Under the pieces are notes generated by a model. That model worked only from the letters and a program-made list of their open reading frames with translations, did not search any database and had not been told where the DNA came from. A program made the position numbers and the translations under genes. Shown here piece by piece: positions 1 through 32,794 of a DNA stretch of 64,000 bases. The DNA is from Candidatus Magasanikiibacteriota bacterium (lineage in GTDB: Bacteria; Patescibacteriota; Patescibacteriia; Magasanikbacterales; UBA922). Positions within the stretch are counted from its first letter, which is position 1. The number at the start of each line of letters is the position of its first letter. The stretch spans positions 324,948-388,947 of the forward strand of contig JAKITS010000001.1 of assembly GCA_021648085.1 (NCBI GenBank). The letters run 5' to 3'.

Positions 1-1128
1 TGGTTTACTAAAAATAAAGGTCCTTTGTACTGCTTACGAATTTGCTTCCAGACCAAATCAATCAACCTACCTTTTTGAGCAGTGTTTTCATATTTTACAC
101 CAAGCTCATCTAATTTCTTTTTCAAATCATCTTCCGAAGAGGTTAAAATATCTATATCTAATTTTTCTTTAATTGCAGAAACATAATCAAGTCTTTTCCA
201 CTTCTCTCCAAGATCAATTTCACCAAATTCTTTTAGATTAAACTTTAAAGTTCCCCAAGTTTTTTTTGCAACAAACTTTATCATTCTTTCGGTCATTTCC
301 ATGTTATCTTCATAGTTTTTATACGCCCAATAAAATTCCATTTGGGTATAATCTTGAAGGTGTTCCCTACTTATTCCTTCATTTCTAAATTGGCGACCTA
401 TCTCAAAGGTCTTCTCAAAACCACCGACCATAAGTCTTTTTTGCCACAACTCCCCCATTGAAATACGCAAGAACACATCTATATCTAGTGCGTTGTGATG
501 AGTTGAAAATGGAGATGCCTCTGCTCCTCCAGTTGTGGTTTCTAATACTGGTGTCTCCACCTCCAAAAATCCTTCGTTTACTAAAAATTCACGAATTGCA
601 GACCAAAATGTGCTTTTTCTTCTGAAAAGCTCTTTTGATTCTTTATTCATTATCAAGTCTAAATATCTTTTTCTAAATTTTATTTCTTCATTTTGAAGTC
701 CATGAAACTTGTCTGGCAAAGGAAGGAGTGATTTTGAAAGCATTTTCCAATTACTAACCAAAAGTGATTTCTCTTCTGTTTTTGTAATAAAAAAATCACC
801 AGAAACTTCAATAATATCTCCAATGTCTACTTTTTTTACGAAAAGTTTATAATTTTCTTTCCCCAAGTTATCCTGCTTGAAAACCATTTGCATTCTTGCA
901 CTTTCGTCTTCAATTTGTATGAAAGTCAATTTACCGATTTCTCTTTTCATCATGATTCTACCTACACAAACAAATTTATCATCTTCTTTTCCTAATAATA
1001 CTTCTGAAAGTGTATTTGTTCTGTCTGTTTTTGCTGGATAAGAATTTATGTTTAATTCTTGTAAATCTTGTAATTTTTTAAGGCGAACTGAACGCTCGTC
1101 ATTTATATTTACTTCGTTTGTATTCATA
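1..1128 (-). CDS. lysS: lysyl-tRNA synthetase, class II (C-terminal part lies beyond window start)
   Basis: Minus-strand translation from ATG at 1126-1128 gives MNTNEVNINDERSVRLKKLQDL... and later FEIGRQFRNEGIS and ETPVLETTTGGAEASPF (class II LysRS motifs). The frame is open to the window edge. Confidence 0.85.
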
Positions 1129-27569: not shown

Positions 27570-27669
27570 AATTTATTTTAATTAATCTTTTAATCTTATA
27601 ATATCACAATTAACAAAATTGAGTAAATAAAAAGTAACACATATTAGGTTACTTTTTCGCTCGACGGGT

Positions 27670-28119
27670 CGGATTCGAACCGACGACCAATTGGTTACAC
27701 TCTACCCTCTGTTCCCAGAAGAAGTGGACTATATTATCACCCTCGCCTAAACCGCGTAAATCGCGGACGTTAGGGTGCGAAGCGCTTCCCAACAAATTGC
27801 AAACAATCTGTAAGTACTCCCGTAAAGGGATAGTCTCTGAACCTTCCGAATATAAGTCCTTATTACACAGACTATGCAAAACACATAAAGTGTACATATT
27901 CCTTTTTGTAATCTTTGGACTATACAAGGCTTGGCTGCTGATTGCCCTTGATATAGGGAACTGTTATTAAATACCATTTCTATTAAAAGCGTATTTAATG
28001 ACAGTTCCCAATTCATCGATTGGGTTTCCAGCAATTCACTTCGTTATTCACCTTGATGTTTCCACCAAGGGCTGCATTTTATATATACAGCCAACTGCTC
28101 TACCACTGAGCTACCGTCG
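27670..28119 (-). tRNA. tRNA-Asn(GUU), split by an intron in the anticodon loop (5' exon 28086-28119, 3' exon 27670-27707)
   Basis: Minus strand. 5' half TCGACGG-TA-GCTCAGTGGTAGAGC-A-GTTGG-CTGT and 3' half TAA-CCAAT-TGGTC-GTCGGTTCGAATCCGAC-CCGTCGA-G. Acceptor stem and T-arm are perfect. The spliced anticodon loop is CUGUUAA. Confidence 0.75.
27708..28085 (-). other. group I-like self-splicing intron (about 378 nt) inside tRNA-Asn
   Basis: Exon GGCUGU pairs with intron GCAGCC 9 nt into the intron (P1 with a U-G wobble at the splice site). P2 is CCTTGGTG-GAAA-CATCAAGG. CAGAGACTA motif in the P7 region. Intron ends in G (omega-G). The ORFs called inside it are spurious. Confidence 0.65.
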
Positions 28120-28165
28120 AATATTGGAACCTGAAAGATTCCTTTTGTAAAAATTACACCCCATC

Positions 28166-28194
28166 ATTATATACCATTCTTCAAAAAAAAGCAA
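28166..28194 (-). promoter_or_regulatory. sigma70-type promoter for the intron-containing tRNA (TTGCTT - 17 - TATAAT on minus strand)
   Basis: The reverse complement of 28166-28205 reads TTGAAAACACTTGCTT-17nt-TATAAT. The same upstream block, TTGAACACTTGCTT, precedes the small basic ORF at about 26612-26640. Confidence 0.55.
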
Positions 28195-28670: not shown

Positions 28671-30869
28671 CTAATCAAGCTTCCTCCTTTTCAAAAGTAA
28701 AGAATTCAAAACAACAGAAATACTACTCATGGCCATCGCAAGCCCAGCATATTCTGCTTTCAAAAGTCCTAGTGCGGCAATTGGAATTCCCACACTATTA
28801 TAAAACAATGCCCAAAACATATTTTGTCTTATTTTACTCATAGTCATCCTACTCAGACGAATTGCCTTCACAGCATCCAAAATATCATTTTTCACCAACA
28901 CGATATCTCCAGATTCTATTGCCACATCTGTACCGCTACTCATAGCAATTCCAAGATCTGCTTGAGCCAAAGCCGGCGCGTCATTTATCCCATCTCCAAC
29001 CATTGCAACAAGCTCGCCTTTTTCTTGAATTTTCTTTATTTCTCCTGCTTTTTCTTCGGGCATTATTTCTGCCAAAACTTTGTCTATCCCAACTTTTTTT
29101 GCTATTGCTTCAGCTGTTTTCTTGTTATCTCCCGTCATTATTACACTTTTTATACCCATTTTATGTAGAAGTTTCAAAGCCTTTTTAGATGTTTTCTTCA
29201 CTGTATCTGCCACCGCCACCAAACCAATTACTTCTTTTTCTACTCCCACTATCATTACTGTTTTTCCCTCGCCTTCCAACTTGCTTTTTTTATTTTTCAG
29301 ATGAGATTCAAACTTTATACCATTTTTTTGCATAAATTTTTCAGTCCCCACATAAACTTCTTTTTTATCTATTACTCCACAAATTCCACTTCCTGGCACA
29401 GCTCTAAATTTACTCACCTCACTCAATTTAATTTTATCTTCTGCTGCTTTTTTCAATATAGCATCTGCCAAAGAATGCTCAGAATTTTTTTCCAAAGATG
29501 CAGACAAGCTCAACAATTCGGTTTTCTTTATTTCTTTTTTCGCAATAACCAAATTGGTCACAACAGGTTTTCCTTTGGTCAAAGTTCCAGTTTTATCAAA
29601 AACAACAGTTTTTACTTTTCCCGCAATTTCCAAGGCTTCACCTGTTTTTATCAAAATTCCATTTTCAGCACCTTTGCCAGTTCCCACTATAATTGCAGTA
29701 GGCGTCGCCAAACCAAGCGCGCATGGACAAGCTATAACAAGCACGGCGGTAAACGCAAGAAGTGCTGAAACGAAAGTAGAGCCGACTACAAAAAACCAAA
29801 CCACAAATGTCACAATCGCAATCACAACAACCGTTGGAACAAAATAGCTAGAGATTTTGTCGGCATATTTTTGAATTGGAGCTTTTGAACCTTGTGCCTC
29901 TTCTACCACTTTTATAATATGCGACAAAACTGTGTCTGCCCCAACTTTTTCTGCTTTAAATGTAAAACTTCCATTTTTGTTTATTGTTGCACCAATTACA
30001 TCACTTCCCTTCTTTTTGTCCACTGGAATACTTTCTCCAGAAATCATAGACTCATCTACTGCAGATCGTCCGTTCAAAACAACACCATCAACAGGAATTT
30101 TTTCACCGGGACGAATTACTATAGTATCCCCTACTTTTACACTTTCTATTTTAACCTCTACTTCTTTTCCATTTTTCAAAATCCTCGCAGTTTTTGCCTG
30201 CAAACCAATCAATTTTTTTATAGCGTCTCCTGCTTTTCCTTTTACCCTAGCTTCTAGCCATTTTCCCAAAACTATAAAAGTTATAAGCAAAGCTGAAGTC
30301 TCAAAAAACACCTCTCCACCCAAAATATAAGTAGATGCTAAACTATAAAAATATGCTGCACTCGTCCCAACTGCAACCAAAGTATCCATATTTGCAGTTT
30401 TGTTGCGCGTTGCATAATACATTCCTCTATAAAATCTGTAACCTATTCCAAATTGAATTATTCCTGCGAGCACAGATTGAACGACTAAACTTCCAAAAGA
30501 TTTGTTCATCAAAAACATACTCAAAATCAAAACAGGCAATGCCAAAAATGCACTTAGTAAAAATAAGTTGCGCTCTTTTTTTATTTCTTTTTTGGTATCA
30601 ATTTTTGAATGGTTGTGGTTATTAATATTTAAACCTTCTTCACCTTTCTTTTTTGATACCACCCCAACCATCTTATATCCACTTTTCTTTATTACCCTCT
30701 CTACTTCACTTGCATCCAAATCACCCTCTATTGTCGCTTTTTGTGTAGCATAATTTACATTCGCACGTTTTACACCTTTTAATTTTGATAAGTTTTTTTC
30801 TATTGTTATCGCACAAGACGCGCAGTGCATCCCTTCTATTCCATACTGTTTAATTTCTTTTTTATCCAT
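28671..30869 (-). CDS. copA: copper-translocating P1B-type ATPase
   Basis: N-terminal HMA domain GMHCASC, CPC in TM6, DKTGTLT, and GDGINDAPAL. 732 aa. Confidence 0.93.
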   Translation of the reverse strand: MDKKEIKQYGIEGMHCASCAITIEKNLSKLKGVKRANVNYATQKATIEGDLDASEVERVIKKSGYKMVGVVSKKKGEEGLNINNHNHSKIDTKKEIKKERNLFLLSAFLALPVLILSMFLMNKSFGSLVVQSVLAGIIQFGIGYRFYRGMYYATRNKTANMDTLVAVGTSAAYFYSLASTYILGGEVFFETSALLITFIVLGKWLEARVKGKAGDAIKKLIGLQAKTARILKNGKEVEVKIESVKVGDTIVIRPGEKIPVDGVVLNGRSAVDESMISGESIPVDKKKGSDVIGATINKNGSFTFKAEKVGADTVLSHIIKVVEEAQGSKAPIQKYADKISSYFVPTVVVIAIVTFVVWFFVVGSTFVSALLAFTAVLVIACPCALGLATPTAIIVGTGKGAENGILIKTGEALEIAGKVKTVVFDKTGTLTKGKPVVTNLVIAKKEIKKTELLSLSASLEKNSEHSLADAILKKAAEDKIKLSEVSKFRAVPGSGICGVIDKKEVYVGTEKFMQKNGIKFESHLKNKKSKLEGEGKTVMIVGVEKEVIGLVAVADTVKKTSKKALKLLHKMGIKSVIMTGDNKKTAEAIAKKVGIDKVLAEIMPEEKAGEIKKIQEKGELVAMVGDGINDAPALAQADLGIAMSSGTDVAIESGDIVLVKNDILDAVKAIRLSRMTMSKIRQNMFWALFYNSVGIPIAALGLLKAEYAGLAMAMSSISVVLNSLLLKRRKLD

Positions 30870-32065: not shown

Positions 32066-32794
32066 TTAACAACCACCAACCATTCCAGGTGATTTTATGT
32101 CTGGCTTAAATCCAGAATTTTTTGCTTTTTCTTTTAGATTTTTCAACTCATCTTCGCTCAAATTCATTGTCAAATACTTTATGTCTGAAGTAAATTTTTC
32201 AACCTCTCCAGAAAGTGAATTTGCCATACGCTCTTGCATTTGAGATGGAAAATACATTCCCTTTTGCCGCATAAGCTCATACGCAATTTCAGCATCCGTC
32301 ATTTCTGGATAATTTCTAATTAAATACGCAGCTGTGCCACGCATTGCAATAGAATGTGCACAACCACAGGTTGGAGAGCCATCTTTTCGCACCAAAGTTT
32401 TTACACCACAACAAAATTCACATGTAATATACGGCTCTGTCCCTATTTTTACATACCTTTCCATCTCCTCTTTATTCAATTCAATCGGATTAGAACCTTG
32501 CATTGGTGCCATTATAGACAACTTCTTTATAGATGCATTTATAGCGTTTATACTAGACATATCCAAACCAAGCTCTACTCCATAAAATGGCATTTCTGTT
32601 GGTGTCACTAAAATAGCAACATCTTTTGCAAAGTCTCCAGTCATAATCATACCGTCCATATTGTGAGAACCAATCATTTGTGAGCCTACCTGCATTGCAA
32701 GTGCCTGATTTGCTATCAGCACAAAACCAACCACAACAATTGCCACCTTTTGAAATAAAAGATGGATATTTTTATTTAAAACATATTTTTTCAT
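32066..32794 (-). CDS. Met/His- and Cys-rich putative metal-binding protein ending in SPGMVGGC
   Basis: Signal/TM N-terminus, Met-rich stretch (GSQMIGSHNMDGMIMTG), Cys cluster (CEFCCG...CGCAHS), C-terminal MVGGC. Confidence 0.55.
   Translation of the reverse strand: MKKYVLNKNIHLLFQKVAIVVVGFVLIANQALAMQVGSQMIGSHNMDGMIMTGDFAKDVAILVTPTEMPFYGVELGLDMSSINAINASIKKLSIMAPMQGSNPIELNKEEMERYVKIGTEPYITCEFCCGVKTLVRKDGSPTCGCAHSIAMRGTAAYLIRNYPEMTDAEIAYELMRQKGMYFPSQMQERMANSLSGEVEKFTSDIKYLTMNLSEDELKNLKEKAKNSGFKPDIKSPGMVGGC

Follow-up and report, generated by a model that had tools for sequence, protein, structure and literature searches.

The minus strand of the window (the whole 64,000-nt stretch of DNA that was analysed) carries a tRNA-Asn(GUU) gene whose two halves are separated by a group I intron (Table 1). 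The window is chromosomal, has a G+C content of 31.8% and encodes, among others, ATP synthase, MurE, MurG, PBP2, ProRS, P-type ATPases and an RND pump. AtpD shares 94% identity with Candidatus Magasanikbacteria proteins, and a 242-aa ORF (32066..32794) matches L3J07_01780 from a Magasanikbacteria MAG at 100% identity. The best protein matches are named Candidatus Magasanikbacteria or Patescibacteria group and, judged by these matches, the host is a member of the Patescibacteria. Magasanikbacteria falls within GTDB class ABY1.

When the exons are joined between CUGU and UAA, they give a 72-nt cloverleaf that ARAGORN calls as tRNA-Asn(gtt). The acceptor stem (7/7 pairs) and the anticodon stem (5/5 pairs) form across the intron, and the D and T arms are both present. 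The intron begins with AUAUAU and ends with GAGUG. Run in intron mode on the precursor, ARAGORN returned tRNA-Asn(gtt) i(35,389), while its default mode made no tRNA call at the locus. An earlier note on this DNA had described a tRNA-Asn(GUU) split on this strand with a perfect acceptor stem and T-arm, a 5' exon ending in CUGU, a 3' exon starting with UAACC, an intron ending in G and a spliced anticodon loop CUGUUAA, all of which hold, as does the intron-aware tRNA detection that it had proposed. Its dimensions were slightly short: the span of 28119..27670 fell short of the gene by 1 nt (5') and 10 nt (3'), and the intron length of ~378 nt was off by 11 nt.

Table 1. Features of the split tRNA-Asn(GUU) gene and its intron (window coordinates).
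Feature	Coordinates	Strand	Basis
tRNA-Asn(GUU) precursor gene, 461 nt, no encoded CCA	27660..28120	-	direct reading, ARAGORN intron mode
5' exon, 34 nt, tRNA positions 1-35, ends CUGU (U35 is the -1 nucleotide); TCGACGGTAGCTCAGTGGTAGAGCAGTTGGCTGT	28087..28120	-	
3' exon, 38 nt: UAACC, T arm, acceptor strand, discriminator G73; TAACCAATTGGTCGTCGGTTCGAATCCGACCCGTCGAG	27660..27697	-	
Promoter-like TTGCTT-17-TATAAT, ~46 nt upstream of the tRNA 5' end	28166..28194	-	direct reading
AT-rich hairpin AAAAAGUAAC...GUUACUUUUU followed by a U run	27629..27656	-	direct reading
Group I intron, 389 nt, subgroup IA architecture, no endonuclease ORF	27698..28086	-	RF00028, fold, covariation
P1: exon GGCUGU + intron AU (28092..28085) with AU + guide GCAGCC (28077..28070)	28070..28092	-	
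P2 hairpin, GAAA tetraloop (CUUGGUG-GAAA-CAUCAAG)	28052..28069	-	fold, covariation
P3 5' strand (partner 27778..27784)	28037..28043	-	covariance model, fold, covariation
P3 3' strand	27778..27784	-	covariation
P4-P5 domain, P5 with long rod extension	27936..28033	-	fold, covariation
P4	28033..28028 with 27941..27936	-	
P5	28024..28022 with 27947..27945	-	
P5 extension hairpin	27956..28009	-	alignment, arm search, fold
P6 with ~80-nt extension	27841..27935	-	alignment, fold, covariation
P7 5' strand, G(A)GACUA inside CAGAGACUA (partner 27726..27731)	27831..27837	-	complementarity
P7 3' strand, UAGUCC	27726..27731	-	complementarity
P7.1 (27830..27818) and P7.2 (27811..27792), between P7 and P3 3' strand	27792..27830	-	unconstrained fold
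P8 hairpin	27738..27777	-	fold, covariation
P9 hairpin, GGAA tetraloop	27705..27722	-	fold, covariation
Terminal guanosine (omega G)	27698..27698	-	conserved in family

The gene is flanked by possible transcription signals. The TTGCTT-17-TATAAT sequence that the earlier note had read as the intron's own promoter is indeed present; its -35 element matches only 3/6 consensus bases, the site is absent from the consensus-scan list, and the region has no excess of promoter-like sites (6 against 4.8 +/- 2.4 expected from shuffled sequence). If functional, which we regard as weakly supported, it would serve the tRNA gene and not the intron. Downstream, the AT-rich hairpin and U run would, as read from the sequence, be the likely terminator of tRNA transcription, and a terminator scan that needs at least 3 G-C pairs did not call it. 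Together, the two elements weakly suggest a single-gene tRNA transcription unit.

To establish what separates the exons, we relied on a covariance model, on folding and on comparison with relatives. Searched alone, the locus matches the Rfam group I model RF00028, the check named in the earlier note, over the full length of the model (positions 1-253) at 28096..27705, with 79.9 bits against a threshold of 50 and E = 1.2e-20; the alignment contains a 44-nt insertion between P7 and the 3' strand of P3. Applied to the whole window, Rfam at the gathering threshold reported only three ordinary tRNAs and nothing at the intron locus, a speed-filter effect that probably stems from the large insertions. 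More generally, scans of a whole window (here 1-64000) can overlook group I introns with large insertions, this one lying 30 bits above threshold.

The minimum-energy fold of 28096..27698, computed without constraints, has a free energy of -131.7 kcal/mol (z = -6.15) and yields P1, P2, P3, P4, P5 and P6 (each of the latter two as a long rod), P7.1, P7.2, P8 and P9. In P1, the internal guide GCAGCC (28075..28070) pairs with exon GGCUGU and places a U35·G wobble at the 5' splice site, as the earlier note had proposed; the guide starts at intron nucleotide 12, not 9 nt in as it had counted. The P2-like GAAA hairpin that it had pointed out is also there, and so is the CAGAGACUA strand it had compared with P7, which is complementary to UAGUCC. 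P7, the guanosine-binding helix, is pseudoknotted with P3. The unconstrained fold places two hairpins, P7.1 and P7.2, in the interval from P7 to the 3' strand of P3, a mark of subgroup IA. The intron contains two ORFs with TTG starts (95 and 92 aa); neither matches Pfam and both overlap the ribozyme core, and for these reasons they are treated as spurious.

The same arrangement recurs widely. A search with a P7 plus P7.1 pattern returned at least 120 metagenome loci and at least 120 viral contigs, and exons were reconstructed by requiring pairing of both the anticodon stem and the acceptor stem. This gave at least 70 distinct split tRNA-Asn(GUU) genes including that of the window, with introns of 213-677 nt. 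We then aligned 52 sequences (the window, 40 endonuclease-free relatives and 11 published sequences), with the structure taken from the window. In this alignment 92.4% of cells pair, compared with 34-44% when the partners are slid by 1-3 columns; compensatory changes on both sides occur at 35/57 pairs, and none of 500 shuffles matched the observed value on any of five measures.

Individual helices are supported to different degrees in this alignment. Compensatory changes are found at 6/7 pairs of P2, at all 7 pairs of P9, at 4 of the 5 base pairs counted in P8 and at 4 pairs of P3, which is 98.7% paired; they are also present in P4, P5 and P6a. The six P7 pairs are complementary in all 52 sequences and never vary, giving zero covariation, so that P7, its 5' strand being part of the search pattern, draws its support from complementarity. 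P7.1 is 95.7% paired, a value inflated by the selection of most sequences with the P7/P7.1 pattern. The splice-site U·G pair is present in every aligned sequence, and all 70 family members end the intron in G. The covariance-model match, the unconstrained fold, the covariation and these two invariant features thus bear out the earlier description of a group I intron.

Some relatives carry additional sequence. Introns longer than 540 nt, found in 28 of the 70 genes, have, in the segment separating the 5' splice site from the internal guide, an ORF of ~106 aa that encodes a Cys/His-rich, HNH-like motif. One such ORF (L018:2784-3104, 106 aa), whose 3' end runs toward the guide, has no Pfam match and is 71% identical to a hand-translated ORF of the published GCA_023898525.1 intron; in the latter, which is long enough to be HNH-bearing, the coding sequence overlaps the guide and P2. 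An exact 30-mer taken from P7/P7.1 occurs in one other genome of the collection scanned, a MAG (L001) with a 251-nt intron at the same tRNA-Asn site. In the P8 region (~495-520) of that intron (409-731, minus strand) lies GGTTCGAATCCCAC...CGAGCCA, which nearly duplicates the T arm and the 3' acceptor end of the host tRNA: stretches of 14 nt and 7 nt match the 3' exon exactly. Either duplication of part of an exon or the remains of an integration site could account for it.

Taken together, it is highly probable that the locus is a self-splicing group I IA intron between U35 and U36 of a Candidatus Magasanikbacteria tRNA-Asn(GUU) gene. Three other readings were weighed against it. Moving both boundaries of the same intron two nucleotides upstream (33/34) joins ...GGCU to UGUAACC... 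and makes the host a tRNA-Thr(UGU), and this product is called Thr(tgt) by ARAGORN, as are ~44 relatives in its intron mode. With that boundary, however, the -1 U would pair with A instead of G, whereas the U·G pair at 35/36 is found in 52/52 sequences, and the terminal nucleotide would be G in 59/70 family members as against 70/70. The exons also carry U1-A72 with G73 in 69/70 members, which we take to be the bacterial tRNA-Asn pattern, as in E. coli tRNA-Asn. Splicing at 33/34 is therefore extremely unlikely. Software is known to make this wrong Thr call, and sequencing of the ligated RNA from a tRNA-Asn homologue gave Asn with the junction at 35/36 (Nakagawa et al., mSystems 2026, PMC13011429; preprint 10.1101/2025.07.03.662931).

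The unusually large insertions in P5 and P6 of the window copy would fit a decayed intron that no longer splices, the interrupted gene being a pseudogene with an intact tRNA-Asn copy elsewhere in the genome. Against this, no core helix is disrupted, the U·G pair and the terminal G are in place, the conserved joining segments are preserved, the joined exons give a perfect cloverleaf, and the P6 extension is retained with substitutions in a relative that is 88% identical; interrupted and uninterrupted copies also seldom coexist in one genome (PMC13011429). We thus regard decay as very unlikely. That the halves are two unrelated tRNA fragments around an unrelated structured sequence has nothing in its favour beyond the silence of default ARAGORN and of the whole-window Rfam run, and it is refuted: the stems pair across the gap, what lies between them is a full-length RF00028 match with covariation, and the arrangement is repeated at no fewer than 69 other distinct loci.

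For the preferred reading, a self-splicing IA intron in tRNA-Asn(GUU), the steps below follow the established group I pathway. A precursor of ~500 nt would be transcribed as a single-gene unit. [quoted passage not shown] Free guanosine would then cleave 3' of U35, after which the terminal G would take the guanosine site and the exons would be joined to give the anticodon loop. RNase P, 3' trimming and CCA addition would finish the tRNA. Catalytic activity of the window copy is inferred, self-splicing having been shown for a homologue. In vitro, the tRNA-Asn intron of GCA_016700035.1 splices itself out precisely, and changing its terminal G to C blocks the reaction (PMC13011429). The window precursor is ~61% identical to this homologue.

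The intron belongs to a class that was already published in 2025-2026. The earlier note had considered an Asn(GUU) host unusual, a view now out of date: among 95 complete Patescibacteria genomes, tRNA-Asn 35/36 is the commonest tRNA intron site, with 15 of 22 tRNA introns, and 3 tRNA-Asp introns also lie at 35/36 (PMC13011429). The window intron resembles these in host tRNA, site and phylum, and in its IA architecture with P7.1 and P7.2, the U·G pair and the terminal G; in the survey, 25/28 introns at 35/36 were assigned to IA. Its sequence is 57-68% identical to the published Patescibacteria tRNA-Asn sequences (55-68% across the alignment), with shared core blocks. Like the published genes, which standard tRNA tools miss or mis-call, that of the window was overlooked by the default tRNA finder.

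Certain differences are apparent. The host belongs to ABY1/Magasanikbacteria, whereas ABY1 is not among the classes in Table S3, and the accessible rows for ABY1 complete genomes show an ordinary tRNA-Asn count (PMC13011429). At 389 nt the window intron is longer, because P5 and P6 are enlarged, than the 196-312 nt of most endonuclease-free examples in the accessible part of that survey. It also has no HNH endonuclease, unlike four of the published Patescibacteria tRNA introns.

An earlier catalogue enlarged the set of group I intron types in bacterial tRNAs, 4 until then, to 21 (Williams 2020, bioRxiv 10.1101/2020.01.27.920355). It includes, according to Nakagawa et al. (PMC13011429), a type ‘Asn.4Ug’ which is the same class as the window intron; the survey is a catalogue only. 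The classical introns, in tRNA-Leu(UAA) of cyanobacteria and plastids, tRNA-fMet, tRNA-Ile(CAU) of Azoarcus and tRNA-Arg(CCU) of Agrobacterium, are likewise small, self-splicing, inserted in the anticodon loop and mostly endonuclease-free. They are, however, of subgroup IC3 and interrupt 33/34, 34/35 or 36/37, whereas the window intron is IA at 35/36; 81% of bacterial tRNA introns are IC (PMC13011429).

Since the kind of element, the insertion site, the subgroup and self-splicing were all published previously, the locus leaves current understanding unchanged. It extends the class to the ABY1/Magasanikbacteria lineage, and the class is common in environmental data, with at least 69 distinct split tRNA-Asn genes among the metagenome matches listed. 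There is also a practical side. Default scans are blind to the gene, which would make the genome seem to be without tRNA-Asn here and so lower completeness estimates, an annotation loss from split tRNA genes that was described by Nakagawa et al. (PMC13011429).

The core of the intron has counterparts in viral data. At least 120 viral contigs (IMG/VR) contain an exact match to the P7 plus P7.1 signature, GGTTCAGAGACTATCCC-N3-6-GGGAGTA, and of 12 such contigs scanned, 11 have RF00028 matches, several of them more than one, with the motif inside an above-threshold match in 10. By sequence comparison, this core signature is common to the window family and to group I introns on phage contigs. Unlike the window intron, only 2 among the at least 120 viral matches listed sit in a tRNA-Asn gene. 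These two (L174:4819-5435 and L231:1217-1527) are tRNA-Asn(GUU) genes split at 35/36 by introns of 544 and 239 nt, and may be either phage-borne copies or Patescibacteria contigs misclassed as viral. Elsewhere, one contig (L122, UViG 3300031933_000003) has four RF00028 matches in 12 kb and another (L131) has two, with GGTTCAGAGACTATCCC-N-GGGAGTA inside one match on each.

The closest relative of the window gene (L019) is 88% identical and has a 342-nt intron. It is without 47 nt that lie inside the P5 extension hairpin of the window, and the P6 extension is common to both. Searching for the arms of this hairpin through the 64-kb window found only its own two arms, and the hairpin is thus not a repeat there. 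These local peculiarities, namely the lack of a homing endonuclease, the larger P5 and P6 and the 47-nt P5 segment, are small. The P5 and P6 extensions, which exceed those of the homologue tested for splicing, could slow folding or make splicing cofactor-dependent. We see a slim chance that they are functional additions and not neutral growth, or that the P5 hairpin is a recent insertion of a tiny mobile element in a ribozyme loop. Functional extensions might tune folding or bind a protein, making tRNA-Asn maturation responsive to conditions. Either case would be a natural instance of the proposal of Nakagawa et al. that introns act as RNA-level regulators in reduced genomes (PMC13011429).

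Three further metagenome samples have contigs with an identical L019-type gene, surrounded as in the window by an ABC-F gene, a DEAD-box helicase, a copper-related cluster and a thioredoxin-like gene; CopA is only a remnant on these contigs. This conserved neighbourhood fits vertical inheritance of an immobile intron. Because it has no homing endonuclease, the intron is probably immobile, and it is probably vertically inherited; the syntenic relatives examined all carry it, and no intron-less allele was found at this site among them. The copper P-type ATPase CopA (28671-30869 in the window) is cut to short N-terminal remnants in the closest relative (L019:4013-4128), where the adjoining thioredoxin-like gene and 242-aa gene are retained.

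Downstream of tRNA-Asn, the DNA differs among the L019-type contigs, and the tRNA gene may be an integration hotspot. Relatives carry a recombinase or transposase at this position (L247:9447-11129, L248:9511-11181, L246:9605-10048), which is, depending on the relative, either an IS200-type Y1 transposase or a large serine recombinase whose ORF overlaps the 3' end of the tRNA; in the window, a PAS protein and an RND pump are encoded at the corresponding position. The copper cluster is conserved, with no tRNA-Asn beside it, in relatives from Magasanikbacteria and Peregrinibacteria that are more distant (L242-L245). One of these contigs (L245:1158-2542) bears a reverse transcriptase gene (RVT_1) next to a bAvd-like gene, which looks like a diversity-generating retroelement and is unrelated to the intron.
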